From Actinomycetota bacterium (GTDB lineage: Bacteria; Actinomycetota; UBA4738; HRBIN12), in assembly GCA_035519495.1 (NCBI GenBank), contig DATIWE010000056.1, positions 18,657 through 82,656 on the forward strand: a stretch of DNA of 64,000 bases, read 5' to 3'. The position numbers and the translations under genes are program-made. Below the pieces are notes generated by a model. That model did not search any database, was not told the DNA's origin, and was given only the letters and a program-made list of their open reading frames with translations. Position 1 is the first letter of the stretch; each line of letters starts with the position of its first letter. Positions 3,837-35,819 of the stretch are shown here, in pieces.

Positions 3837-3932
3837 GCGCCCCTCCTTCCGGCCGGCGGTCCCTCCGGGGATACGAAGGTTGTCGTCACCCTACGCGCTT
3901 ACCACCAGGGCCGCTCGCCGGGGTCCGTCGCG

Positions 3933-4598
3933 CTAGCCGTCGCGGAACCCGATCTCCTGATGCGTGCCGTCGCAGAACGGCTTGTTCTGCGATCCGCCGC
4001 ACCGGCAGAGCGTGACGCGGTGACGGATCTCGTAGGGCTCGCCATCGTCGCCGACCACGGCCACCCCGCCGCGGACCCAGAGCGGCCCGTTGCGGATCGC
4101 CGAGACCGCCGGCGGGTGGTCGAGTTCGTCGGGCTCGGTCGCGCCGTCGGCGAGGAACTCGAGCCGACCCGAAGGACAGAGCATCACCATCGATCGGATC
4201 CGTGCGCGGATCGCGTCGTCGTCGCTTTCGCCGAGCATCGCCCACACCGTCGTGGAACGGTCGCCGCAGTAGCCGGCCCGCGAGCAGAGCGTCAGGTCAT
4301 CGGACATCTCGAAGCCGCTCCCCGGATACGGATACGCCCGTGCCCGGCGGGGTCCTCGATCAGCCACCTCGGTCCCGTCGAACCCCTCCGCACACCCGCG
4401 TCGATCGCACAGTGGCTGCGTGGCCGTCCGCCCACATCGGCAGACCTCGATCGGGTCCGCGTCGGTCGGGACCGGTGTCTCCGGCGCCCAGTCGACCGGC
4501 TCACCGAACTCCGTCTCGATCTGTGCCGTTCGCGACAACGAGACGCCGTGCACCCGGTAGGGGCCGTCGGCTTCGATCTCGATCCGCTGCGGGTCCAT
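3933..4598 (-). CDS. CDGSH iron-sulfur domain protein with divergent 4Fe-4S mono-cluster domain
   Basis: Two CDGSH-type motifs are present (CRCGRTATQPLCD and CRCGGSQNKPFCDGTH). A central Cys cluster LCSRAGYCGDRS ... MLCPSG follows. I chose the start at MDPQ (ATG 4598). The larger track ORF carries upstream Arg-rich junk. Confidence 0.75.
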   Translation of the reverse strand: MDPQRIEIEADGPYRVHGVSLSRTAQIETEFGEPVDWAPETPVPTDADPIEVCRCGRTATQPLCDRRGCAEGFDGTEVADRGPRRARAYPYPGSGFEMSDDLTLCSRAGYCGDRSTTVWAMLGESDDDAIRARIRSMVMLCPSGRLEFLADGATEPDELDHPPAVSAIRNGPLWVRGGVAVVGDDGEPYEIRHRVTLCRCGGSQNKPFCDGTHQEIGFRDG

Positions 4599-4625
4599 CG
4601 CCGGAACCCTAGTACGTGACCCCAC

Positions 4626-5516
4626 GTGTCCGAGACCCACGCTGGGCGCCTCGCTCCTGCCCGACCCGTGGCGCCTGCCCGACCGACCTGCAAGGCTCCC
4701 ACCGTGGACCGACCATCGCCGCGGGATCATGTGGACGTGATCGCGCACTTCGTCGACCTCTGTTCCGCCGACCGGCGGATCGTCGCCGCCTTCCTCTCGG
4801 GATCCAACGCGCGAGACGAGGCCGACGCATATTCGGACCTCGATCTGTGCCTGATCGCCACCGACGCGGCGTACGACGACGTCGTGGCCGACCGGGCGGC
4901 CATCATCGGGAGGCTCGGCGAGCCGCTCTTCTTGGAGAACTTCGGCCGCGGCGACAACGCGTTCTTCATCCTGGCCGACGGCACCGAGGGCGAGCTGTTC
5001 TTCGCACGCGAGGGCGGGCTCGATGCGATCGACGCGGGGCCGTACCGCCCGCTTGTGGACAAGACGGGCATCCTGGCCGGCGCGGTGTTCCCGTTCACCG
5101 AGCCGGACCGTGCGGAGCAGGTCGAGGAGCTCCGCCGCGTCCTTCAGTGGTTCTGGCACGACCTGTCCCACTTCATCGCCGCGCTCGGACGCGGCCAGCT
5201 CTGGTGGGGGGCCGGCCAACTCGAAGCGCTCCGCGCGTACTGCGTGAACCTCGCGCGCATCGAGCAGCACGTCGAAGCGCAGGACGAGCCCTACGAGAAG
5301 CTGGATCACGTGCTGTCGACGACCGAGCTCGAGGTGCTGCGCTCGACCTTCTGTCCCATGGAACGGCGCGCGATGCTCGAAGCCGCGAGTGACATCCTCG
5401 CCTTCTATCGGGAACGGGCACCCATCGTGGCCAAGGCGTACGGGTTGCCCTATCCCGCCGAGCTCGCGGAGCTGATGTGCACCCGCTTCGACGAGCTCGA
5501 GCCTGCCTCGGGCTGA
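4626..5516 (+). CDS. nucleotidyltransferase, ANT(6)/AadK-like aminoglycoside adenylyltransferase family
   Basis: The NTase motif is RIVAAFLSGSNARDEADAYSDLDLCLIA and the length is about 280 aa, as in ANT(6). The true start is probably the internal VDVIAH near 4734. The 3' end overlaps the convergent membrane-protein gene by about 67 nt. Confidence 0.55.
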   Translation: MSETHAGRLAPARPVAPARPTCKAPTVDRPSPRDHVDVIAHFVDLCSADRRIVAAFLSGSNARDEADAYSDLDLCLIATDAAYDDVVADRAAIIGRLGEPLFLENFGRGDNAFFILADGTEGELFFAREGGLDAIDAGPYRPLVDKTGILAGAVFPFTEPDRAEQVEELRRVLQWFWHDLSHFIAALGRGQLWWGAGQLEALRAYCVNLARIEQHVEAQDEPYEKLDHVLSTTELEVLRSTFCPMERRAMLEAASDILAFYRERAPIVAKAYGLPYPAELAELMCTRFDELEPASG

Positions 5517-12622: not shown

Positions 12623-12757
12623 CGGCTCGAACGCCCGCCGGGCCCGGCGCCGCGCGTCCCCCGAAGTGATGAGCGCCGGAATCACCCGATGGGCGTATGC
12701 CGCTGCCCGCCATAGGCGGTTAGACCGGGACCGATCCGTCCGACGATGGGAGGCACC

Positions 12758-14320
12758 GTGGAACGGCATGGCTCCGAGACGTACTACGTGATCGGCGAAG
12801 GGCTCCTCGGCGAGAGCGTCGGGGGCCGTGTGCACACGATGGCCGCCGCCTCCGCCGAAGCCGAGCTGGTGCCGCCGTTCCGCTTCTCCCGGATGGGGCC
12901 GAGCGGCGTCAACCGCCAGCTCGGCGACCCGCTCCGCAAGAAGCTCGCGAACCTGATGACCTCGGGCCCCGAGGCGTTCTCGCAGATCCCCTCCGGTTAC
13001 ACGTACCTCGGGCAGTTCGCCGACCACGACCTGACCTTCGACAAGACGAACGTGATGTTCGGCCAGAACGTGCCGCCGGCGCAGCTGCTCGAGGCTCGCT
13101 CCCCCAGCCTCGACCTCGACTCGCTCTACGGCGCCGGCCCGACCGATCCCGGATCGGCGGCCTTCTACGAGGCGGACGGGGTCCACCTCAAGAGCGGCAC
13201 GACCGCCGCGGCCGATGGGATCCCCGCGAAAGCTGGCTTCGACCTGCTCCGCGGGGCGGGCGCGACCGCGAAGGCGAAGCGGACCGCGATCATCCCCGAC
13301 CCGAGGAACGACGAGAACCTCGCGGTCGCGCAGACGCACCTCGCGTTCATCCGCTTCCACAACCGGGTCGTCGACACCCTCCCGAGCTCGACGCCCGTCG
13401 GCCAGCGCTTCGCGAAGGCGCGCAAGATCGTCACGAACCACTACCAATGGATGCTCCGCACGGACTTCCTGCCGCGCATCTGCCAGCCGAGCGTCGTGAA
13501 CGATGTGTTCGCCCACGGGAGGAAGGTCTTCGAGGTGGGCGCGTCGCCGACCGACATCCCCACGATGCCGATCGAGTTCTCCGTGGCCGCCTACCGACTG
13601 GGGCACTCGATGGTCCGCGAGGCGTACAGCTGGAACAAGATCTTCGACGACGGCAGCGGCACGCTCGAACTGCTGTTCACGTTCACGGGGCTGAGCGGCG
13701 ACCTCGGCGGTGGGCTGCGGCTCCCCAGCACGTGGATCGCCGACTTCCGGCGCCTCTACGACTTCAGCGAGGCCGGCCGTGCCGATCTCGTCGTGCCTGC
13801 CGCCCGGTTCAATCGGGCGATGCGCATCGACACGAAGCTCTCGAACCCGCTCAAGCGCGTGCCGGGGTTCCCCGCCGGCGAGAACAACCTGGCGTTCCGC
13901 AACCTGACGCGGGCCCGGATGGTGAAGCTCGCGACCGGCCAGCAGATGGCCACCTTCCTGAAGTCGAAGGGCGTGACGCTCACGCCGCTGACGAAGGCGC
14001 AGATCCGCGACGGCGGCACGAACGGGGTCACGCTCGACGGGCTGACGACCGTGCAGCGGAACAGCCTGCTGAAGGACACGCCGCTGTGGTTCTACATCCT
14101 GCGCGAAGCGGAGCTCGGTCAGGGCAAGCTGCGCGGCGTGGGCGCCCGCATCGTGGCCGAGACGTTCCATCGGGCGATCGAGGGCAGCTCGACCACGTCG
14201 ATCGTGCGCGATCCCACATGGCACCCGACGCTCGGCCCGAACAACACGACGTTCCGCATGGTCGACCTGCTGCTGTTCGCGTTCCAGGGGAAGAAGAGCC
14301 TGCTGGCGCCGCTCGGCTGA
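12758..14320 (+). CDS. haem peroxidase of the peroxidase-cyclooxygenase (animal haem peroxidase) superfamily
   Basis: About 520 aa. Family motifs include GQFADHDLTFD (distal His region), RNDENLAVAQTHLAFIRFHN and the proximal region AYRLGHSMV. A GGGAGG SD precedes the GTG at 12758. An alternative ATG is at 12746. Confidence 0.75.
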   Translation: MERHGSETYYVIGEGLLGESVGGRVHTMAAASAEAELVPPFRFSRMGPSGVNRQLGDPLRKKLANLMTSGPEAFSQIPSGYTYLGQFADHDLTFDKTNVMFGQNVPPAQLLEARSPSLDLDSLYGAGPTDPGSAAFYEADGVHLKSGTTAAADGIPAKAGFDLLRGAGATAKAKRTAIIPDPRNDENLAVAQTHLAFIRFHNRVVDTLPSSTPVGQRFAKARKIVTNHYQWMLRTDFLPRICQPSVVNDVFAHGRKVFEVGASPTDIPTMPIEFSVAAYRLGHSMVREAYSWNKIFDDGSGTLELLFTFTGLSGDLGGGLRLPSTWIADFRRLYDFSEAGRADLVVPAARFNRAMRIDTKLSNPLKRVPGFPAGENNLAFRNLTRARMVKLATGQQMATFLKSKGVTLTPLTKAQIRDGGTNGVTLDGLTTVQRNSLLKDTPLWFYILREAELGQGKLRGVGARIVAETFHRAIEGSSTTSIVRDPTWHPTLGPNNTTFRMVDLLLFAFQGKKSLLAPLG

Positions 14321-25581: not shown

Positions 25582-26514
25582 CTACCACCACAACGACTCC
25601 TCGACGCCGCGCTCCGCCTTCGTGAGGTCCTCGGCCCAGGCCTGGGTCGACAGGTACTTCCATCCGCCGTCGGGCAGCAGGCAGACGATGTCGGCCTGCT
25701 CCACCTCCTGGGCGACGCGCTGGGCGACGTGGATCACGGCGCCGCTGCTGATCCCGGCGAAGATCCCCTCGCGCGCCGTCAGCTCGCGCGTGGCCCGCAG
25801 CGAGTCCGCCGAGTTGACCAGGAATTTCCGGTCGATCTGCGCCGGATCGAAGATCGGCGGGATGAAGCCGTCGTCCAGCGACCGGAGCCCGTACACCAGG
25901 TCGCCCAGCTCGGGCTCCGCGGCGATGATCTTCACGTTCGGGTCGTGCGCGTGCAGTCCTCGGCCGGTGCCGGTCAAGGTGCCGCCGGTGCCCATGCCGG
26001 CGACGAAGTGCGTCACGGTCGGCAGGTCGCGGATGATCTCCTGCGCCGTCCCCCGCTCGTGCGCGCCCGGGTTCGCGGGGTTCCCGTATTGGAACGGCAT
26101 GTAGTAGCGCTCGTCGTTCGCGAGGGCGCGCGCCACTTCGATCGACCCGTTCGTGCCCTTCGCACCGTCGGAGAAGACGATCTCCGCGCCGAAGAGCCGG
26201 AGCAGGACGATGCGCTCCTCGCTGGCGTTGTCGGGGATCACGACCGTGAGCGCGTACCCCTTCCGGCGGCTCACCATCGCGAGCGCGATGCCCGTGTTGC
26301 CCGACGTCGGTTCCAGGATGGTCTTGTCCGCCGTGAGCTCGCCGCTGGCTTCGGCGGCCTCCACCATCGCCAGCGCGATCCGGTCCTTCGTGGAGCCGGT
26401 CGGGTTCTGCCCTTCGAGCTTCGCCCACAGCCGAACGGACGGCGAAGGCGACAGCCGAGGGATGCCGACCAGCGGCGTGTCGCCGATCGCATCGAGGATC
26501 GAGTCGAAGCGCAC
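25582..26514 (-). CDS. cysM: cysteine synthase (PLP-dependent). Synteny suggests the CysO-thiocarboxylate-dependent CysM type
   Basis: The PLP lysine lies in NPTGSTKDRIAL. The glycine-rich loop is GTGGT. Gene order matches M. tuberculosis cysM (Rv1336). Confidence 0.8.
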   Translation of the reverse strand: MRFDSILDAIGDTPLVGIPRLSPSPSVRLWAKLEGQNPTGSTKDRIALAMVEAAEASGELTADKTILEPTSGNTGIALAMVSRRKGYALTVVIPDNASEERIVLLRLFGAEIVFSDGAKGTNGSIEVARALANDERYYMPFQYGNPANPGAHERGTAQEIIRDLPTVTHFVAGMGTGGTLTGTGRGLHAHDPNVKIIAAEPELGDLVYGLRSLDDGFIPPIFDPAQIDRKFLVNSADSLRATRELTAREGIFAGISSGAVIHVAQRVAQEVEQADIVCLLPDGGWKYLSTQAWAEDLTKAERGVEESLWW

Positions 26515-26553: not shown

Positions 26554-26964
26554 TCATCCCATGACCCACCACGGGCCGAGTCCCTGCTCGCCGGGGTTCG
26601 GTGCGTCCTCGAACAGGAGCCTCGTGGCCCGATGCCCGGCGTTCGTGAGCATCCACATCTTCGTCGCGCCGCGCGCCCGCGCACCCGCGACGAACGCGCC
26701 CAACAGCTCCTTGCCCACGCCGTGCTCGCGGACGGCCTCCGCGACCTCGAGACCGCAGAGGAGATCGGACGGCCCGCCCACCGGCTGCGGCAGCTCGAAG
26801 CCCCACGCGAACCCCACGACCGTCTCGCCGTCGAGCGCCACGAACGCGAGCGATCGGGGGTCGGCGAGGAACGCGGGATCGGTCTGCAACTCGAAACCGT
26901 GGAACGCCCGCACCGCCGCATCCATCACGGCGCCGTCGCGCGCGCCGAGTCGACGGATCTCCAT
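26554..26964 (-). CDS. GNAT family N-acetyltransferase
   Basis: The start is MEIRRLGARD. The acetyl-CoA-binding motif is REHGVGKELLGAFVAGARARG. Confidence 0.65.
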   Translation of the reverse strand: MEIRRLGARDGAVMDAAVRAFHGFELQTDPAFLADPRSLAFVALDGETVVGFAWGFELPQPVGGPSDLLCGLEVAEAVREHGVGKELLGAFVAGARARGATKMWMLTNAGHRATRLLFEDAPNPGEQGLGPWWVMG

Positions 26965-27008
26965 CCGCCGAGCTTGACCCACCCGGGCGCCGCCGTCACG
27001 GTTGGCCG

Positions 27009-27401
27009 GTGAGCCAGCTCCCCGGTGAGCCTCGAGAGCAGATGGACGCCCTGATGCGGCTGCTGCTGGCGTACGCGCGCGCCGCGGTGGCGGCCGACGA
27101 CGGCTTCGCGCCGTTCGGCGCGTCGATGGCCCCCGACGGCGAGCTCGAGACCTCCTCGGCCGAGGAGCTGGATGTCCTGCGCGACGAGCTCCGCGGACGC
27201 GCCGATCGCGGCGAGCTCCTGGCGGTGGGCGTGTGCACCGACGTCGTGGTCGACGTTCCGGCGTCGCGGGCGATCCGGGTCGAGCTGGAGCATCGGGACG
27301 CGGAGCCGCTCACCTGCGTGCTCCCTTTCCGCCTGGGCGAGGAACGCCCCGCGTGGGGGGAACTCACGTCGATGCCCGGCGAGCGCCGGACCTGGGACTG
27401 A
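27009..27401 (+). CDS. hypothetical protein (130 aa) upstream of ECF sigma factor
   Basis: ORF with an acidic central region. No recognisable domains. Coding potential is supported by codon bias only. Confidence 0.4.
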   Translation: MSQLPGEPREQMDALMRLLLAYARAAVAADDGFAPFGASMAPDGELETSSAEELDVLRDELRGRADRGELLAVGVCTDVVVDVPASRAIRVELEHRDAEPLTCVLPFRLGEERPAWGELTSMPGERRTWD

Positions 27402-27453
27402 CGCGACCCGGCACCTCTACAGATTCCGGCCGCCCCGGGCGTTGGAAGAGACG

Positions 27454-27990
27454 ATGGAAGAAGTCGCCCATGTGGACGAGTTGATCGCGGAGAGCCGAGC
27501 GTTGTCGGGGCCCGCGCAGCCGTTCGAGGAGTTCTTCATCCGAGAGATGGACCGGCTCCAGCGGGCGCTGGTCCTGATCACGGGGAGCCGCTCCGACGCC
27601 GAGGACATCGCCCAGGAGTCCTTCATGCGGGTCTTCGCGCGCTGGGACGAGGTCGGCACGATGGACCAGCCGGCCGGCTACCTGCATCGGGTCGCGATGA
27701 ACCTGTTCCGCAGCCGGTACCGCCGGGCCGTCCGTGAGCTGAAGCGAACGACCGGGATGGTCGACCGGCACGACGACGGTCTCGGACCGGTCGAGGATCG
27801 GGACGAGGCCGGGCGGATCCTCGCCGAGCTCACGCCGCGGCAACGAGCCGCGCTCGTGCTGACGGAGGCGTTCGGCTATTCGGGCGAGGAAGCCGCAGAG
27901 CTCCTCGGCGTGAAGCCCTCGACCGTGTACGCCCTCACCCACCAGGCCAGGCGCGCCCTGGCCGGGATCGCCGGAGGGATCGATGCCTGA
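27454..27990 (+). CDS. ECF (sigma-70 family) RNA polymerase sigma factor
   Basis: Region 2 is DAEDIAQESFMRVFARWDEV ... YLHRVAMNLFRSRYRR. Region 4 is LTPRQRAALVLTEAFGYSGEEAAELLGVKPSTV. GGAAGAG precedes the ATG at 27454. Confidence 0.85.
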   Translation: MEEVAHVDELIAESRALSGPAQPFEEFFIREMDRLQRALVLITGSRSDAEDIAQESFMRVFARWDEVGTMDQPAGYLHRVAMNLFRSRYRRAVRELKRTTGMVDRHDDGLGPVEDRDEAGRILAELTPRQRAALVLTEAFGYSGEEAAELLGVKPSTVYALTHQARRALAGIAGGIDA

Positions 27991-29113
27991 GGTGCGCGAC
28001 GTCCTCGAGCGGCAGATGGACCGCACCCCGATCGAGCCGATCACGGTCGAGGCCTTCTTCCGTCGCCGCGACTCGTTGCTCCGGCGCCGACGGATCACGG
28101 CGGCCGTGGTCGCGATCGCGGTGGCGGTGGCGGCGACCGGGCTCGCCGTCCACGCGTTCGACCGGGCGCAGGGCGCGGTCCCCGCGCTCCCGCCGCCGCG
28201 CGCGGGGTCGATCGTGTTCGTCGGCCGCGGATCGGCGTGGGCGCCGACGGACAACGGGAGCGTCTACGTCTACGACCCGGCTTCGGGGAACGTCTCGAAG
28301 CTGCTGGATCTCAGCTGCACCCAGGATGCCGCCGGGCACCGATCGTGCCCGGGCGTCCGGGTGAACGGGGTCGCCGCATCGCCCGACGGTACCCGCTTCG
28401 TGTACTCGCTCGCGGAGAGCCACCCCGACACCGTGAGCGATACCACGTGGACGATGACCGATGCGGTTGGGTTGCACGTGCTCGACCTCCGGTCGGGCCG
28501 GAGCACCCGGATCGTGCCGTGCGCGCCGCCTTCCTGCTCCGAGATCGGCTCGGTGGCCTGGTCGCCCAACGGGACCACGATCGCCTACACGATCGACCGT
28601 CTCGACGGAGCGTCGATCCGGCTCGTGGACCCCGACGGCTCGAACGATCGCGCGCTCGACGTCGGGCTGGCCGACGCCCGCGATCCGGCCTGGTCGCCCG
28701 ATTCGTCACGGATCGCGTTCAGCGCGATGCCATCGCACGGTCCGCAGGTCCCGACCCTCTTCGAGACGGCGATCTGCTGCGACACGCGGGAGCTGATCTT
28801 CGGACACACGCAGAGAAGTGGATACGCGCCCGCTTGGTCACCGGCCGGTACGTCGCTCGCGTACGTGCAAGGGGAGGGAGGTCCGACCGGATCGGTATGG
28901 GTGCTCCGGACGGAAAGCGGGATCGCGACCCGGGTCGAAAGCCTCGGGGTCGCGGAGCAAAGCACGCCGGCGTGGAGCCCGGACGGTTCGCGGATCGCCG
29001 TGATCTCCAACGGCCGCCTCCTGCTCGTTGATCCCGACGGAGGAACAACGACCGTGCTCACCAAGGCATGGAGCCGGGTCGGGCCCGTCTTCTACCCAGG
29101 AGGTTCGTGGTGA
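27983..29113 (+). CDS. anti-sigma factor with single TM and extracytoplasmic TolB-like beta-propeller
   Basis: It overlaps the sigma gene by 8 nt. A TM segment (ITAAVVAIAVAVAATGLAV) is followed by repeated AWSPDGS/AWSPNGT/AWSPDSS blades. Confidence 0.7.
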   Translation: MPEVRDVLERQMDRTPIEPITVEAFFRRRDSLLRRRRITAAVVAIAVAVAATGLAVHAFDRAQGAVPALPPPRAGSIVFVGRGSAWAPTDNGSVYVYDPASGNVSKLLDLSCTQDAAGHRSCPGVRVNGVAASPDGTRFVYSLAESHPDTVSDTTWTMTDAVGLHVLDLRSGRSTRIVPCAPPSCSEIGSVAWSPNGTTIAYTIDRLDGASIRLVDPDGSNDRALDVGLADARDPAWSPDSSRIAFSAMPSHGPQVPTLFETAICCDTRELIFGHTQRSGYAPAWSPAGTSLAYVQGEGGPTGSVWVLRTESGIATRVESLGVAEQSTPAWSPDGSRIAVISNGRLLLVDPDGGTTTVLTKAWSRVGPVFYPGGSW

Positions 29114-30105
29114 ACATCACTCGCGGGGTCGGGCTCCTCGGTGCCGTCGCGCTGCTCGGTGCCTGCACCGGTGGCGGGTCGGGTCCCACGCAGGCGCCGA
29201 CGACGTCGATCGCACCGACCCCGGGGGTGATCGTGTTCGGGAACGACCCCCTGAGCGCGGGTGGCCACGCGCAGCTCTACATCGAATCCGACGACGGCTC
29301 GCATGTGCGACGGTTGGTCGTCTCGAGCGAGAAAGACGTGGGTCCGTCCATCTCCCCCGACGGGACGCGGGTCATGTTCACGCGGATCCACGATCCCCGC
29401 CCCGATCGCATCTTCGTCGTGAACGTCGACGGATCCGATCTGCATCAGGTCGTCCCGACGGGGTGCCCGGGCCGCTGCGGAGACGCGGTCGAGAGCGATC
29501 CCTGGTCGCCCGATGGGACCCGGATCGTGTTCACCCGGGCGATCTACGGCCGGGGACCCATCCCGATCCACGTGCAGCTCTGGACGGCGAACGCGGACGG
29601 GACCGGCGCACGGCAGATCACCGACCCGCACCACGCCCAGGACGATCAGGCCAGCTGGTCGCCGGACGGGACGCAGATCGTCTACCTCCACTGGGCGTAC
29701 GGCCACCCGGATCGGTTCACCATCCAGATCGCTGCCGCCGACGGCACCGGGAGCCGGCAGCTGACCCCGGACGGACTCGATGCCGCAGACCCCGCGTGGT
29801 CGCCGGACGGGGCGTTGATCGCCTTCCAGTCGCCCCCGGATCCGGGCGGGGCCATGCAACAGCTGTACACGATCCGTCCGGACGGCTCGGGCCTCCGCTC
29901 GCTCACCCCGGAGCTCGCCGGCACCGCCACGAACCACCCGTCGTGGTCGCCGGACGGATCGCAGCTCGTGTTCGCACACGCTCCCTCCGGTCCCCTCGGC
30001 GGCGACCTCTTCGTGATCGATCGCGACGGGACCGGCGTTCACGTCCTGCGGGTGACGGGGTTGAACGAGAACGGCCCGGACTGGGGACCCGCCGTCGCGC
30101 CCTAG
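29110..30105 (+). CDS. TolB-like beta-propeller lipoprotein
   Basis: AGGAGG sits 6 nt before the GTG at 29110. The signal peptide has a lipobox GLLGAVALLGAC. Repeated WSPDGT blades follow. There is a 4-nt overlap with the anti-sigma gene. Confidence 0.7.
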   Translation: MNITRGVGLLGAVALLGACTGGGSGPTQAPTTSIAPTPGVIVFGNDPLSAGGHAQLYIESDDGSHVRRLVVSSEKDVGPSISPDGTRVMFTRIHDPRPDRIFVVNVDGSDLHQVVPTGCPGRCGDAVESDPWSPDGTRIVFTRAIYGRGPIPIHVQLWTANADGTGARQITDPHHAQDDQASWSPDGTQIVYLHWAYGHPDRFTIQIAAADGTGSRQLTPDGLDAADPAWSPDGALIAFQSPPDPGGAMQQLYTIRPDGSGLRSLTPELAGTATNHPSWSPDGSQLVFAHAPSGPLGGDLFVIDRDGTGVHVLRVTGLNENGPDWGPAVAP

Positions 30106-30124
30106 CTCCGGGACGGAGCTCGGG

Positions 30125-30403
30125 CTAGCTGCCGCCGGCGACGGCCGGCAGGATCGAGACCGTGTCGCCTTCCTTGACCTCGGTCTGGAGCGAGCCGAGG
30201 TAGCGCACGTCCTCGTCGTTCAGGTACACGTTGATGAACCGATGCAGGCCGCCGTCCTCGGACACGACGTTCTTCGTGATGCCCGGGTACTTCGCTTCGA
30301 GGTCCTGCAGGACGTCGGCCAGCGTGGCGCCGTCCGCACCCACGCGGGCCTCGTCGCCCGCGAACTTCCGCAGGATCGTCGGCAGCTTCACGGTCACGGT
30401 CAT
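30125..30403 (-). CDS. cysO: MoaD/ThiS-family sulfur-carrier protein (CysO-like) with C-terminal Gly-Gly-Ser
   Basis: 92 aa with a beta-grasp composition. The C-terminus is ...SILPAVAGGS. The position matches CysO (Rv1335) in the mec-cysO-cysM synteny. Confidence 0.8.
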   Translation of the reverse strand: MTVTVKLPTILRKFAGDEARVGADGATLADVLQDLEAKYPGITKNVVSEDGGLHRFINVYLNDEDVRYLGSLQTEVKEGDTVSILPAVAGGS

Positions 30404-30428
30404 GTCGGCTCTCCTCGGGGGTCTGGGT

Positions 30429-31256
30429 CTACTCGGGCCTGGCGGGGACGCCGCAGAACTGTTCGTAGTCGATCAGCTCGGTGATGGTCGGCTCCTTGCC
30501 ACACACCGGGCAGTCCGCGTCCCAGCGGATCTTCACTTCCTGCACGTCCATCGTGAGGGCGTCGTAGAGGAGCAACCTTCCTTCCAGCGTCACGCCCTCG
30601 CCGGTGAGGATCTTGATCGCCTCGGTCGCCTGGACCGAGCCGATGAAGCCCGGCAGTACGCCGAACACGCCCCCTTCGGCGCACGACGGCACGGTGCCCG
30701 GCGGCGGCGGCGAGGGGAACAGGCAGCGATAGCACGGCGTCTCCTGCCCCGGCATGAACACCGAGGCCTGGCCTTCGAACTGGTAGATCGAGCCGTAGAC
30801 GAGCGGCTTGCCCAGGAACTGCGTGGCGTCGTTCACCAGGTAGCGGACCGGGAAGTTGTCGGTGCCGTCGACGATCACGTCGTAGCCGTTCATCACGTCG
30901 AACACGTTCGTCGAATACAGGAGCGTGTCGTGCCCGACGATCTCGATCGTCGGGTTGATCGCACGGAGGTGCTCGACGGCCGACTCGACCTTCGGACGGC
31001 CCACATCGGCGGTCGTGTGCAGGATCTGACGTTGGAGGTTCGTCACGTCGACGCGGTCGAAGTCCACGATGCCGAGCTTGCCCACGCCCGCGGCGGCCAG
31101 GTACATCGCGACCGGCGAGCCCAGCCCGCCGGCGCCGATCACCAGCACCGAACCGTCCAGGAGCCTGCGTTGGCCCTTCCCGCCGATGTTCGGCAGGATG
31201 ATGTGTCGCGAATACCGCTGGACCTGCTCCTCGGTGAACATCGGCTGCTGGCTCAT
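30429..31256 (-). CDS. ThiF/MoeB-family E1-like adenylyltransferase (MoeZ-like but lacking rhodanese domain)
   Basis: The start MSQQPMFTEEQVQRYSRHIIL overlaps the mec stop (ATGA). The nucleotide-binding motif is VLVIGAGGLGSPVAMYL. Zn Cys pairs are CYRC and CPVC. At 276 aa it has no C-terminal rhodanese domain. Confidence 0.8.
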   Translation of the reverse strand: MSQQPMFTEEQVQRYSRHIILPNIGGKGQRRLLDGSVLVIGAGGLGSPVAMYLAAAGVGKLGIVDFDRVDVTNLQRQILHTTADVGRPKVESAVEHLRAINPTIEIVGHDTLLYSTNVFDVMNGYDVIVDGTDNFPVRYLVNDATQFLGKPLVYGSIYQFEGQASVFMPGQETPCYRCLFPSPPPPGTVPSCAEGGVFGVLPGFIGSVQATEAIKILTGEGVTLEGRLLLYDALTMDVQEVKIRWDADCPVCGKEPTITELIDYEQFCGVPARPE

Positions 31257-31651
31257 GCGACCGTCAGCTCCTCCTCGGTGACCTCGCCCTCGTGGATGAA
31301 GAACGAGCGAAGGACGGGATGCTCGCGGTCGGCCAGCGACAGCAGGATGTAGCGGGCGTCGGGGTAGAAGGCCAGCTTGATGTCGGTCTCGCTCGGGTAC
31401 GCCTCGGAGTGCGTGTGCGAGTGGTAGATCGCCCAGAGATCCCAGCCGTGCTCGTCGAGCTCGTCGAAGACCCGCAGCTGCTCCCTGCCGTCCAGGCGGT
31501 ACGTCGCCGGGCTGGCGTCGGCGTTCTTCATCGGGAACACCTTCACCGGCGCCCCGGCCTCGGCGGCGACCAGGCCGCAGCATTCGTTGGGGAACTCACG
31601 CATCCCCTGTTCGAGGATCTCCTTGTACAGGACGCCGTCCAGCTCGCTCAA
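31253..31651 (-). CDS. mec: Mov34/MPN/JAMM-family metalloprotease (Mec-like)
   Basis: The JAMM motif is HSHTHSEAYPSETD. An upstream Glu/Cys lies in FPNECCGLV. I placed the start at the TTG at 31651, which is preceded by GGAGAC. The ORF could extend to the ATG at 31702. Confidence 0.75.
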   Translation of the reverse strand: MSELDGVLYKEILEQGMREFPNECCGLVAAEAGAPVKVFPMKNADASPATYRLDGREQLRVFDELDEHGWDLWAIYHSHTHSEAYPSETDIKLAFYPDARYILLSLADREHPVLRSFFIHEGEVTEEELTVA

Positions 31652-31738
31652 CGCTCGTCTCCATCGTCGACAGACGCGGAACCCCGCCTGTTGCAGGTGC
31701 AAATGCTATCAGCGGACCGGCTATTCCCGATACGGGCT

Positions 31739-32833
31739 TTAGGCGGGTAATACGACCCTGCCCGAGCCGTCCACGACGACGTCGATGCGTTGCAACGGAG
31801 CACTTGCGGGCCCGGCCACCGGCTCGGCCCCTCGAGAGGGATCGAACTCCGCCCCGTGACACGGGCAGATCAGGAGTTGGGACGCCGGATCGTAGCCGAC
31901 CACGCACCCGGCGTGGGTGCAGATCCGGCTGTACGCGAGCACGCTGTCGTTCGCGAGCCGCAGCAGGACGGCCGGACCGACCCCGGGGGCCGAGAACCCG
32001 ACCGCCTTGCCCACGGGGAGCTGCGAGAGGTTCGCGATCACGGTGCCCGCAGGCGAGGCTGGGGAAGAGGGTTGCGCTGGTGCGCTTGTCCCGCCCGCGG
32101 CGGGCGTGGACGGCGCCGTCGCGGGCGAGTGGCTCGCCGGCGATCGACGGATCGCCGGCGAGATCGCGTCGACGTTCGTCGGGACGCCGCGGAACACCCG
32201 CGCGACCCCGTCCAAGACGAGCGCGCAGAGGCCGACGGTGGCGACCTGCAGGGCGACCCGCCGGTCGACGGGCGGGCCGGCGTTGACGTACGCGACGCGA
32301 CCCCCTGCGCCGGGCACGGGCGTTCGACGCAAGCGCGACCACGTCCCGACCACGAGGGCCAGCCACGCCACGGCGTAGATCGAATCGGATCCGAGGAAGT
32401 ACGGGTGGACGTGCCACGTCGCCGAGAGCAGGAGCGAGAGGTTCACGAGGAACCCGCCGAGCGCCGCGAGCGGCAACGCGATCCCGAACAGGACGGCCAG
32501 GCCGATCGCCGTTTCGAGCAGCGCGGTCGATACGCCCACCAATACCGCGTGGTGCGCGAGGGCGCCGAACACGGCCCCGAGCGGCGTGCCCAGTGCGAAC
32601 CCGCGCAACTGCGTGCCGATGTAGTCGGGACTCCCCCGGCGCAGGAAGTTGGGGTCCAGGAGCTTCTGCATCCCCGCGAACACGAACGTGCCACCGAGGA
32701 ACGCGCGGAGGATCCCCAGGGGCCATCCCGTGGCGCGCCAGTCGGCGACAAGGAGCGCACCGAACGTCGCATGGCGATGCGCGCCGCGGAGGCTCCGGTC
32801 AGGGCGTGGCGGCGCATACGTACGTGGTCGCAT
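31739..32833 (-). CDS. DoxX-family membrane protein fused to C-terminal Rieske [2Fe-2S] domain
   Basis: The N-terminal 4-TM DoxX-like region is ILRAFLGGTFVFAGMQKL. The C-terminal Rieske motifs are CTHAGC ... CPCHGAEFD. Confidence 0.7.
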   Translation of the reverse strand: MRPRTYAPPRPDRSLRGAHRHATFGALLVADWRATGWPLGILRAFLGGTFVFAGMQKLLDPNFLRRGSPDYIGTQLRGFALGTPLGAVFGALAHHAVLVGVSTALLETAIGLAVLFGIALPLAALGGFLVNLSLLLSATWHVHPYFLGSDSIYAVAWLALVVGTWSRLRRTPVPGAGGRVAYVNAGPPVDRRVALQVATVGLCALVLDGVARVFRGVPTNVDAISPAIRRSPASHSPATAPSTPAAGGTSAPAQPSSPASPAGTVIANLSQLPVGKAVGFSAPGVGPAVLLRLANDSVLAYSRICTHAGCVVGYDPASQLLICPCHGAEFDPSRGAEPVAGPASAPLQRIDVVVDGSGRVVLPA

Positions 32834-32868
32834 CTGCCTACTTTCGGCGCCGGTCGGCTAAGAGTGGG

Positions 32869-33927
32869 TTAGGAGAACGTCGAGACTTCGTGGCGTTCCG
32901 CCGGCCGGCCAACGACGCGGATCGCGCCCGGAGCGCCCTCGACGACCGCGCCGACGCGTGTGAACAGCCCGGATGCCTCGAGGGCGCTCGGATCGTGCGT
33001 GGTCACGAGCAGCCCGCCGCTCGTCTGCGCGTCGGCCAGCACCAGCTGCTCGGGCGGAGTCAGTTCGCCCCAATCGGTGACCGGGGCCAACCAGGCGTGG
33101 TTCCGCTTCGAGCCGCCGGGTACGACGTCGCCTCGGGCGAGATCGAGGACCCCCGGGATCAGCGGCACGGCCGCCGCGTCGACGATCGCCGCGCAGCCGC
33201 TCGCCTCCAGCAACCGGCGGAGGTGGCCGAGCAGGCCGAAGCCGGTCACGTCGGTGCCGGCCTCGACGCCGGCGTCCAGCATCGCCGCGGCGGCCGCGGC
33301 GTTACTCGTCGTCATGAGCTCGACGGCCGTGGCCACCAGCTCGGCGGTCACGACGCCCCGCTTCAGCGCCGTCGCGATGATGCCCAGACCGATCGGCTTC
33401 GACAGCCAGAGTTCCGCGCCGGGCGTTGCCGTCGAGTTGCGCACGATCCGGTCCGGATCCACGAGCCCCAGGACGACCATGCCGTACTTCGGCTCCGGGT
33501 CGGTGATCGAGTGCCCGCCGAGCACCGCGACGCCGGCCGCACCGGCGGCGTCGATGCCGCCCTGCAACACCTGCCCGAGGGCTTCGCGCGGCAACTCGTC
33601 GATCGGCCAGCTCACGATGTTGAGCCCGAGGAAGGGCCGGCCGCCCATCGCGTACACGTCCGAGAGCGCGTTCGTGGCGGCGATGCGGCCCCAGTCGTAC
33701 GGGTCGTCGACGATCGGCGTGAAGAAGTCCAGCGTCGCCACGACGGCCTCGCCGGAGGGAAGGCGGTAGACGGCGGCGTCGTCGCCCGTGTCGGCGGCAA
33801 CCAGCACCTCGGCAGGGACCGGCGGCAGGTCGAGGCCGGCGAGCACGGCCAGGAGATCGTCCGGTCCGAGCTTGCAGCCGCAGCCCGCGCCGTGGCTGAA
33901 CGAGGTGAGACGGCGTTCGGTCTGCAT
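32869..33927 (-). CDS. selD: selenide, water dikinase (selenophosphate synthetase), Cys-type
   Basis: The start is MQTERRLTSFSHGAGCGCKLGP. This is the SelD signature with Cys, not Sec. The AIR-synthase-like fold is present. Confidence 0.85.
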   Translation of the reverse strand: MQTERRLTSFSHGAGCGCKLGPDDLLAVLAGLDLPPVPAEVLVAADTGDDAAVYRLPSGEAVVATLDFFTPIVDDPYDWGRIAATNALSDVYAMGGRPFLGLNIVSWPIDELPREALGQVLQGGIDAAGAAGVAVLGGHSITDPEPKYGMVVLGLVDPDRIVRNSTATPGAELWLSKPIGLGIIATALKRGVVTAELVATAVELMTTSNAAAAAAMLDAGVEAGTDVTGFGLLGHLRRLLEASGCAAIVDAAAVPLIPGVLDLARGDVVPGGSKRNHAWLAPVTDWGELTPPEQLVLADAQTSGGLLVTTHDPSALEASGLFTRVGAVVEGAPGAIRVVGRPAERHEVSTFS

Positions 33928-33977
33928 GCCGGCAGGATACGGCCGCACACCCTGCGCCGGAGCGCGATACTCCGGGC

Positions 33978-35819
33978 GTGGACGTAGCGGCGTTCCTCGC
34001 CATGTATCCCCCGTTCTCGGAGCTGGTGCCCGACCGGCTCGCGGCCATCGCCCGGGCGATCGAGATCGCCCACTTCCCCGCCGGCGAGGTGATCCTCGAG
34101 CAGGACGGCACGCCGGCCTCCAACCTGTTCGTCGTCCGCAAGGGCGCCGTTGAGGTGCTGGACGACGGGATCGTGCTGGACCTGTTGGGCGAAGGGGAAG
34201 TGTTCGGACAGTTCTCGCTCCTCGGTCAGGTCAGCCCGGTCGCCACGATCCGCGCGCTCGAGGACACGCTCGCCTACCTGATCCCTCGCCCGGTCGCCGT
34301 AGACGTCCTCTCGTCGCCCGCCGGCAGATCGGTCGTCCTGGCTACGATGCGACGGCGGCTCGAGGTGGCGAACGACGAAGTGAGCGTCGCCCGGTACGAG
34401 GACCCGCGGTTCGCGACGATCGGCTCGTTGATCCGTCGCGAACCCGTGACGATCGAACCCGACGCGCCGATCGCCCAGGCCGCGCTGAGGATGACCGAGC
34501 AGCGGGTTTCGTCCCTCCTGATCCCGACGCCGGAGGGTTGGGGGATCCTCACCGACCGGGATCTGCGTGCGAAGGTCGTCGCGGAGAAGGCCTCGTACGA
34601 CGCCCCGGCGATCACGTCGGCGACCGTGCCGGCACGGACGCTACCGTCCTCCACGCTCTCCGGCGAAGCGTTGCTCGAGATGTTCGCCCAAGGCGTCCAC
34701 CATTTCCCCGTGACCGAGGGCGGGCGCGTGATCGGCATCGTGACCGACACCGACCTCATGGGGATCGGCCGGCACACGCCCTTCGCGATCAAGAGCGCGA
34801 TCGAACGCGCCGACACGCGCGAGGCTGTGGTCGATGCCGGCCGCCAGCTCCCCAACGTGGTGGCGGCGCTCGTTGACTCGACCGCTGACCCGGTGGCGGT
34901 CGGACGGGTGATCGCGCTGGTGATCGACGCCCTCACCGAGCGCCTGGTCCTGCTCGCCGGCCGGTCGATCGGCGAGGCGCCCGCCGCGTTCGCGTGGTTG
35001 TCGCTCGGCAGCGCGGCCCGCCACGAGCAGGCGCTGCACACCGATCAGGACCACGCGCTGGCATACGAGCTCGCGCCGGGATCAACGGACGAGGACGTGG
35101 ACGGCTTCTTCGCCGATCTCGCCGAGTTCGTGACGAGCGGCCTCGAAGCCGTCGGCATCCCCCGGTGCCATGGCGACGCGATGGCGGTCCATCCGGCGAT
35201 GCGCCGCTCGCTCGAACAGTGGGCCGGGCGCTTCCGACGCTGGATGGACGAACCCGACCTCGACGCCAGGATCCTGTCGTCGATCGGGTTCGACTTCCGG
35301 CGCGTCGCCGGTCCGCTGGCCGCCGAGCCGACGCTGGACGCTGCGGTCCGGGAAGCACGCACACACCCGGCGTTCATCGAACTGCTGGCGCGCGGCGCGC
35401 TCACACTGAAGCCGCCCACGGGCTTCTTCCGGGATCTCGTGGTCGAGGCGAAGGGCGAGCACGCCGGCCGGCTCGACGTGAAGCACGGCGGCATCACGAT
35501 CGTCACGAACATCGCGCGCGCCGTCGGCATCGCCGCGGGGACCGCCTCGAAGGGCACGCTCCCGCGGCTCGACGCCGCGGCCGCGGCTGGCACGCTCGAC
35601 CCCACGGTTGCCGGCGAACTGGGCGACGCCTTCCGGTTCCTGTGGCAGGTCCGACTCCGTCATCAGGTGACGCAGATCGAGGCGGGGACCGCGCCGGACG
35701 ACTTCGTCGATCCGACGGCGCTCGGGCCGCTGGACCGGAGCGGCCTCAAGGAAGCCTTCCGGGTGATCCGCGCGGCGCAGACGCTGGTCGCGACGGAGTT
35801 CAACGCCCAGCTCCGCTGA
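33978..35819 (+). CDS. cyclic-nucleotide-binding + CBS pair + DUF294 nucleotidyltransferase domain protein
   Basis: The N-terminal cNMP-binding domain is FPAGEVILEQDGTPASNLFVVRKGAVEV. CBS domains sit in the middle. The C-terminal half is DUF294/DUF294_C-like. Confidence 0.7.
   Translation: MDVAAFLAMYPPFSELVPDRLAAIARAIEIAHFPAGEVILEQDGTPASNLFVVRKGAVEVLDDGIVLDLLGEGEVFGQFSLLGQVSPVATIRALEDTLAYLIPRPVAVDVLSSPAGRSVVLATMRRRLEVANDEVSVARYEDPRFATIGSLIRREPVTIEPDAPIAQAALRMTEQRVSSLLIPTPEGWGILTDRDLRAKVVAEKASYDAPAITSATVPARTLPSSTLSGEALLEMFAQGVHHFPVTEGGRVIGIVTDTDLMGIGRHTPFAIKSAIERADTREAVVDAGRQLPNVVAALVDSTADPVAVGRVIALVIDALTERLVLLAGRSIGEAPAAFAWLSLGSAARHEQALHTDQDHALAYELAPGSTDEDVDGFFADLAEFVTSGLEAVGIPRCHGDAMAVHPAMRRSLEQWAGRFRRWMDEPDLDARILSSIGFDFRRVAGPLAAEPTLDAAVREARTHPAFIELLARGALTLKPPTGFFRDLVVEAKGEHAGRLDVKHGGITIVTNIARAVGIAAGTASKGTLPRLDAAAAAGTLDPTVAGELGDAFRFLWQVRLRHQVTQIEAGTAPDDFVDPTALGPLDRSGLKEAFRVIRAAQTLVATEFNAQLR

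Follow-up and report, generated by a model that had tools for sequence, protein, structure and literature searches.

The CysO-like protein encoded in the stretch of DNA analyzed here (64,000 nucleotides; hereafter, the window) is probably synthesized as a pro-form with one residue after its Gly-Gly motif (CysO-Gly-Gly-Ser), which would be trimmed by the Mec-type JAMM peptidase of its own operon in a protein-thiocarboxylate route to cysteine; this reading is based on the sequence of the locus and its comparison with relatives. The gene, cysO, is located on the minus strand at 30125..30403. The translation of this open reading frame is MTVTVKLPTILRKFAGDEARVGADGATLADVLQDLEAKYPGITKNVVSEDGGLHRFINVYLNDEDVRYLGSLQTEVKEGDTVSILPAVAGGS, a protein of 92 residues whose C-terminus reads ...SILPAVAGGS. 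The closing codons are GGC (30134-30136), GGC (30131-30133), AGC (30128-30130), and the stop codon TAG (30125-30127); i.e., Gly90-Gly91 is encoded at 30131-30136, and the additional residue, Ser92, is encoded by AGC. With this one Ser codon before the stop, the primary translation product has no free Gly-Gly C-terminus, and the Gly-Gly-Ser ending that the initial annotation had read for a CysO-like carrier is confirmed by both the translation and the last codons.

The carrier matches the Pfam ThiS family (PF02597) at 69.4 bits (cut-off, 22.5), and its best matches in the PDB are the CysO proteins of Amycolatopsis orientalis (4n6e_B, E = 1.9e-28) and Mycobacterium tuberculosis (3dwg_C, E = 5e-27). 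Both proteins align from end to end with the window carrier, and both terminate at the Gly-Gly pair that corresponds to its residues 90-91. The stretch of residues 84-91, ILPAVAGG, is a motif common to the 120 nearest homologs (i.e., the 120 nearest 90%-identity clusters, which are 81-98% identical to the query), a few of which have V/L or S substitutions. Genomic linkage is seen both to a mec-type JAMM gene, which precedes cysO by two genes in the same operon, and to cysM, 3.6 kb downstream on the same strand. On the basis of its sequence, the structure matches, and the synteny of cysO...cysM-murI-MBL-rph-rdgB, the carrier is assigned as a true CysO ortholog, and its predicted role is to form a thiocarboxylate and to transfer the sulfur to the aminoacrylate bound to CysM. 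The Ser codon before the stop does not disqualify the protein from the CysO subgroup because most of its nearest homologs (69%; see below) and the accepted members QbsE and CxnE are also tailed.

The position of the stop codon is well supported. Gene calls on six contigs, which come from different samples (ENA, JGI, and Logan), gave the identical 92-residue protein; the DNA of these contigs is 99.7-99.95% identical to that of the window (one to six mismatches each over up to 2.2 kb), and all of them read GGCGGCAGCTAG. A related genome (L001), which is 90.7% identical to the window in this region, has the same ending. The initial annotation had named a sequencing error at the stop codon as a way in which its claim could fail, and this error is excluded by the agreement of six independent assemblies and L001. 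A sequencing or assembly artefact, by which the true protein would end at Gly-Gly, was rejected on the same grounds; many relatives carry other tails, no point in favor of such an artefact was found, and its probability is practically nil, short of a systematic error common to all public assemblies.

The cassette has the order JAMM peptidase, MoeB-type E1 without rhodanese, and cysO, which is the last gene of a tightly packed minus-strand block. The JAMM gene (31253..31651, minus strand) starts with the TTG codon at 31649-31651, with GGAG ahead of it, and encodes a Mec-like JAMM/MPN+ metallopeptidase of 132 residues, a length also given by the gene caller in the identical contigs. The protein matches Prok-JAB (PF14464) at 73.3 bits, and its best match in the PDB is 2kks_A (2.3e-22). 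The catalytic motif HSHTHSEAYPSETD (HxH-x7-S-x2-D), which the initial annotation had quoted, is present and intact at 31382..31423 on the minus strand, within this Prok-JAB gene two genes upstream of cysO. Glu23, His77, His79, Ser87, and Asp90 are invariant when the gene is aligned with its mec counterparts in canonical mec-cysO-cysM operons (Amycolatopsis, Streptomyces, and other lineages), and the zinc site, E-x(n)-H-x-H-x7-S-x2-D, is complete. [quoted passage not shown] By orthology with this enzyme, the JAMM of the window is expected to hydrolyze after the Gly-Gly of its carrier, whether in CysO-Cys or in pro-CysO.

The E1 adenylyltransferase of the MoeB/ThiF type (30429..31256, minus strand; 275 residues) lies between the two genes; its start overlaps the stop of the JAMM gene by 4 nt (ATGA), and the 25 nt between its own stop and the ATG of cysO hold a ribosome-binding site, GAGGAG (30411..30416, minus strand), which was read from the sequence 7 nt upstream of the ATG. 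The enzyme matches PF00899 at 277.6 bits over residues 15-251 of 275 and the MoeB subfamily PRK05690 at 303.8 bits (cut-off, 266), and its best PDB matches are Uba4, MoeB (1jw9), and ThiF. The translation contains the nucleotide loop GAGGLGS, the CxxC pairs CYRC and CPVC, and the loop cysteine in PSCAEGG. Two CxxC zinc motifs are the mark that separates MoeB-type from MoeZ-type enzymes (PMC3227635). Neither a rhodanese domain nor any Pfam domain other than ThiF was found in the 275 residues. The MoeZ model matches the enzyme over positions 15-275 of 392 only, with 379 bits (cut-off, 647), which places it outside the MoeZR/MOCS3/Uba4 type. A promoter and terminator scan of 29900-34200 gave no signal above the shuffled expectation.

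The CysM ortholog, a CysO-dependent O-phosphoserine sulfhydrylase, is encoded at 25582..26514 on the minus strand. It matches the CysM of M. tuberculosis (3dwg_A/3dki_A) at 339 bits, compared with 238 bits for the next cysteine synthase, and the alignment reaches the C-terminal ...LW. Downstream, cysM is followed by murI, an MBL-fold gene, rph, and Ham1/rdgB, which is the gene order of Rv1336-Rv1341 of M. tuberculosis. Because of the CysM match and the shared downstream gene order, the locus is regarded as the ortholog of the mycobacterial mec-cysO-cysM locus and, more broadly, of the conserved actinobacterial mec-cysO-cysM-murI-rph region. In the species of the window, cysO and cysM are separated by a block of approximately 3.6 kb (26554-30105), whereas cysM is directly adjacent in many relatives. 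The block contains two PD40/Tricorn-like β-propellers, an ECF sigma factor, and a small unknown open reading frame on the opposite (plus) strand and a GNAT acetyltransferase on the same strand as cysO.

The locus thus resembles the Mec+/CysO/CysM system of M. tuberculosis (Rv1334-Rv1336, activated by MoeZR) in the family and fold of the carrier, in the catalytic motif of the JAMM, in CysM, and in the neighborhood of cysM, and it differs from that system in four respects. The mycobacterial CysO ends at Gly-Gly, whereas that of the window ends at Gly-Gly-Ser; a dedicated MoeB-type E1 without rhodanese is located between mec and cysO in the window, whereas the MoeZR of M. tuberculosis is distant; cysM is displaced by the 3.6-kb insertion; and selD is present upstream.

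The initial annotation implied that the extension is a rarity, which is wrong; in this clade, a tail is the commoner state. Among the 120 closest homologs, 83 are tailed and 37 stop at Gly-Gly. Their tails are 1-32 residues long and have 45 distinct sequences (RR in 18, S in 8, AAS in 4, R in 4, C in 3, and others), the first residue being S, R, Q, A, T, E, C, or H. In a second set, of 80 species-representative genomes and their loci, 33 carriers (41%) are tailed and 47 have no tail. In a third set, of 150 proteins that each represent a 50%-identity cluster, a recognizable motif was present in 137, and only 37 of these end at Gly-Gly. A tail can be gained or lost between genomes that are 85-91% identical, and the closest tail-less relative (P0002), whose carrier ends in GGT TGA, is 96% identical and has an otherwise identical operon. 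In 89% of the 80 loci, no more than three codons separate Gly-Gly from the in-frame stop. When the two alternative frames of this DNA are read as a control, the value is 5%, with a median distance of 52 codons; the stop is thus constrained in position but not tied to Gly-Gly itself. Gly-Gly-Cys is genetically encoded in some relatives (P0016, P0049, P0110, and L016), and one diverse relative (P0177) has a CF tail like that of QbsE.

The Ser codon of Gly-Gly-Ser is AGC in the window (30125-30133) and in L001, and TCC in another relative (L005, 6268-6276). The AGC and TCC families of Ser codons are not interconvertible by a one-substitution route that stays within Ser, and the split therefore suggests either an independent origin or selection for serine. 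Natural fusions were also observed among the 50%-identity representatives (P0220, P0223, P0236, P0179, P0123, and P0133), in which a CysO-like domain is joined to an E1 (...YSRHLIMPEVG...), to CysM (...GGTPLVGLPRLSP...), or to a second carrier domain. Such fused forms would need cleavage after Gly-Gly, and some of them may be read-throughs of gene calling.

Upstream sequence of at least 1.5 kb is available for 76 loci, and in every one of them a JAMM gene adjoins the carrier gene, for tailed and tail-less carriers alike. A correlation between tail and JAMM presence was considered as evidence and set aside as uninformative, since the adjacency is the same in every evaluable locus; the co-occurrence therefore shows that the peptidase is available, not that it is used. 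Tails are expected to be rarer in carriers without a JAMM, such as classical ThiS or MoaD.

Sequence and comparison show which genes these are, how the operon is built, that the active site is intact, that the stop codon is real, and how tails and JAMM adjacency are distributed in the family; cleavage, the succession of steps, and the source of the sulfur are inferred as follows. The Mec-type JAMM zinc peptidase would hydrolyze the Gly91-Ser92 bond and thereby expose the Gly-Gly carboxylate, the MoeB-type E1 of the operon would adenylate the exposed carboxylate of Gly91, and a sulfur donor would turn the acyl-adenylate into CysO-COSH. This donor is placed elsewhere in the genome because the E1 has no rhodanese domain and no gene for a rhodanese or a cysteine desulfurase was found in the 64-kb window. 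CysM would then add the aminoacrylate derived from O-phosphoserine, and an S-to-N acyl shift would give CysO-Gly-Gly-Cys, from which the same JAMM would free cysteine and regenerate CysO.

The CysO-cysteine adduct, CysO-Gly-Gly-Cys, is linked by an ordinary peptide bond, and CysO-Gly-Gly-Ser is its oxygen analogue, with O in place of S in the side chain. The trimming of Ser92 would chemically be the same reaction as the last step of the route, on a near-identical substrate. The recycling peptidase Mec would cut Gly-Gly-Cys once per turnover, and an encoded -Ser, -Cys, or -Ala would therefore be matured at no extra cost. Such free maturation would explain a stop codon that shifts by a few codons across the family, alongside a Gly-Gly motif and a JAMM gene that never vary. 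Short tails would thus be nearly neutral, in keeping with their rapid turnover, their unconserved sequence, and the universal presence of the peptidase. For annotation, this means that carriers of the CysO type need not end at Gly-Gly and that a few extra residues are a sign of neither an error nor a pseudogene.

The initial annotation had proposed that the extension marks a pro-protein matured by the adjacent JAMM, and the comparative evidence, i.e., the CysO orthology, the intact motif, the adjacency in 76 of 76 loci, and the tails that include Gly-Gly-Cys, argues for this proposal. Against it, the adjacency is equal for tailed and tail-less CysO and does not discriminate between them, and another peptidase, e.g., a carboxypeptidase, could take off a single Ser. 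It is distinctly unlikely, in our estimate, that a general carboxypeptidase or an aminoacyl-releasing enzyme takes off Ser92, or that the 92-residue form is used or ignored as it is, with the JAMM uninvolved in maturation. A single C-terminal residue is indeed an easy target for unspecific exopeptidases; however, an unspecific exopeptidase would not halt at Gly-Gly, and only an endopeptidase with a precise cut after this motif could process the longer tails and domain fusions of the relatives. The E1s of the MoeB/ThiF type act on a terminal glycine, which argues against the adenylation of a terminal Ser (PMC3227635; PMC4326299). A different explanation, rather unlikely as a whole, accepts the trimming by the JAMM and regards the tail as a selected regulatory cap. 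Capped by Ser92, CysO would stay inert until an active JAMM, e.g., one that is zinc-loaded or in a certain redox state, removes the residue; if so, the activation of the carrier would be coupled to the enzyme that later recycles it. The tails are far shorter than in the out-of-frame control, the majority of close homologs are tailed, and the use of Ser from two unrelated codon families could reflect selection for the residue, all of which would suit a cap. On the other hand, neither the sequence nor the length of the tail is conserved, given 45 distinct tails among 120 homologs that are at least 81% identical, and a required checkpoint would not be lost as freely as it is in the 96%-identical relative and in 47 of 80 species with the same operon.

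The cassette also resembles ubiquitin-like conjugation systems, and the 3.6 kb of mainly opposite-strand genes that keep cysM from being contiguous with cysO likewise count against trimming by the JAMM within a cysteine route. In a conjugation system of the SAMP/TtuB type, the E1 would activate the carrier for attachment to lysines, and the JAMM would both mature the pro-form and remove the conjugates. The carrier does pass the NCBIfam SAMP1 equivalog cut-off (66.6 bits versus 60), and its close homologs are named "ubiquitin-like small modifier protein 1" by NCBI; the E1 is without rhodanese, like the E1s of the JAB-linked operons described by Iyer et al. (PMC1779556), and Thermus provides a documented case of TtuB conjugation with a JAMM isopeptidase (PMC3980101). 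However, SAMP1 is the only one of the three equivalog thresholds for SAMP, UbaA, and desampylase that is reached, since the E1 remains under the UbaA cut-off (351 bits versus 450) and the JAMM far under that of desampylase (61.7 versus 130). The nearest structures of the carrier are CysO proteins rather than SAMPs (101 bits versus 29-35), the operon has no E2-like gene, and the locus is the conserved mec-cysO-cysM region with its CysM ortholog. Conjugation as the main function of the cassette is therefore unlikely, and the Thermus precedent suggests that the cassette may have a dual use, in conjugation as well as in the cysteine route.

Maturation of the carrier by the JAMM, as preferred here, is not new as an idea. 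In the thioquinolobactin system of Pseudomonas fluorescens, QbsE carries CF after its Gly-Gly, and in the chuangxinmycin system, CxnE carries a decapeptide; the cluster-encoded JAMM peptidases QbsD and CxnF have been proposed to trim them (PMC5925218). Like the window carrier, QbsE and CxnE are of the ThiS/MoaD type, with encoded tails and a JAMM; however, they serve secondary metabolites and have an E1 with rhodanese, whereas the window system would serve primary cysteine synthesis and has a tail of a single Ser. The closest precedent for a one-residue cap is the HcyS/HcyD pair, in which the extra residue is Ala instead of Ser. As Krishnamoorthy and Begley reportedly described in 2011, HcyS-Ala of Wolinella succinogenes, an epsilonproteobacterium, is trimmed by the JAMM-type HcyD of its operon before it is adenylated by the operon E1, HcyF, and this system feeds homocysteine and methionine synthesis via O-acetylhomoserine sulfhydrylase. 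In other systems, the appendage is a whole protein or a longer propeptide, whereas in the window it is a single residue: JAMM enzymes cleave MoaD-MoaE fusions (DRJAMM, MoaX), and Rpn11 processes an archaeal ubiquitin precursor, the C-terminus of the β-grasp protein being freed by a cut exactly after its Gly-Gly (PMC8832034; PMC4326299; PMC6043591). The release of carrier C-termini by JAB peptidases was already predicted in 2006 by Iyer et al., who also listed operons of ThiS/MoaD, JAB, and cysteine synthase (PMC1779556). JAMM-trimmed pro-forms of sulfur carriers are thus an already established principle, of which the window offers an ordinary case that is common in its family.

The co-directional block begins with selD (32869..33948, minus strand), which encodes selenide, water dikinase (TIGR00476 at 370 bits; cut-off, 125). 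Between selD and the JAMM gene lies a gene for a DoxX/DoxD membrane domain fused to a C-terminal Rieske [2Fe-2S] domain (31739..32833, minus strand; 364 residues); this fusion is found at or near the same position only in some close relatives (L001, L005, L023, L025, L026, L031, and L034). Of the 80 species-level loci, 43 contain the E1, and 37 of these have a same-strand selD ahead of the cassette, often with a gap of less than 150 nt to the JAMM gene; among the 37 loci without the E1, 7 have such a selD. The latter seven belong to other actinobacterial lineages, with a CysO identity of 49-59% and a plain selD-mec-cysO-cysM-murI order, and their synteny further upstream is not retained.

The linkage of selD is the most intriguing side observation and, if functional, the part that is worth an experiment. 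The carrier might also, or instead, handle selenium, such that selenophosphate made by SelD would attack the CysO acyl-adenylate and yield a protein selenocarboxylate, from which CysM would make free selenocysteine or another selenometabolite. We consider this role very improbable. In many genomes, selD is separated from the JAMM gene by insertions of genes with unrelated functions (i.e., hydrolases, a subtilase, RNase II, an ABC ATPase, and an ammonium transporter), which weakens the case for a strict selD-mec operon, and the region keeps the functionally unrelated genes murI and rph in synteny across the phylum; the selD link may be functional, or it may be merely inherited synteny. No selA, selB, selU, or tRNA-Sec was found in the 64-kb window, and no paper that links SelD to protein thio- or selenocarboxylates was found in the literature searched.

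Two further genes were observed. In a distant locus that contains the E1 (L049), a gene at 3911-4822, inserted between those for SelD and the JAMM, encodes a second PLP-dependent (PALP) enzyme; the other is the product of cysM, which lies downstream of cysO. At 12746-14320 on the plus strand of the window, an open reading frame of 524 residues matches the animal heme peroxidase family (PF03098, E = 1.8e-17), which is uncommon in Actinomycetota.
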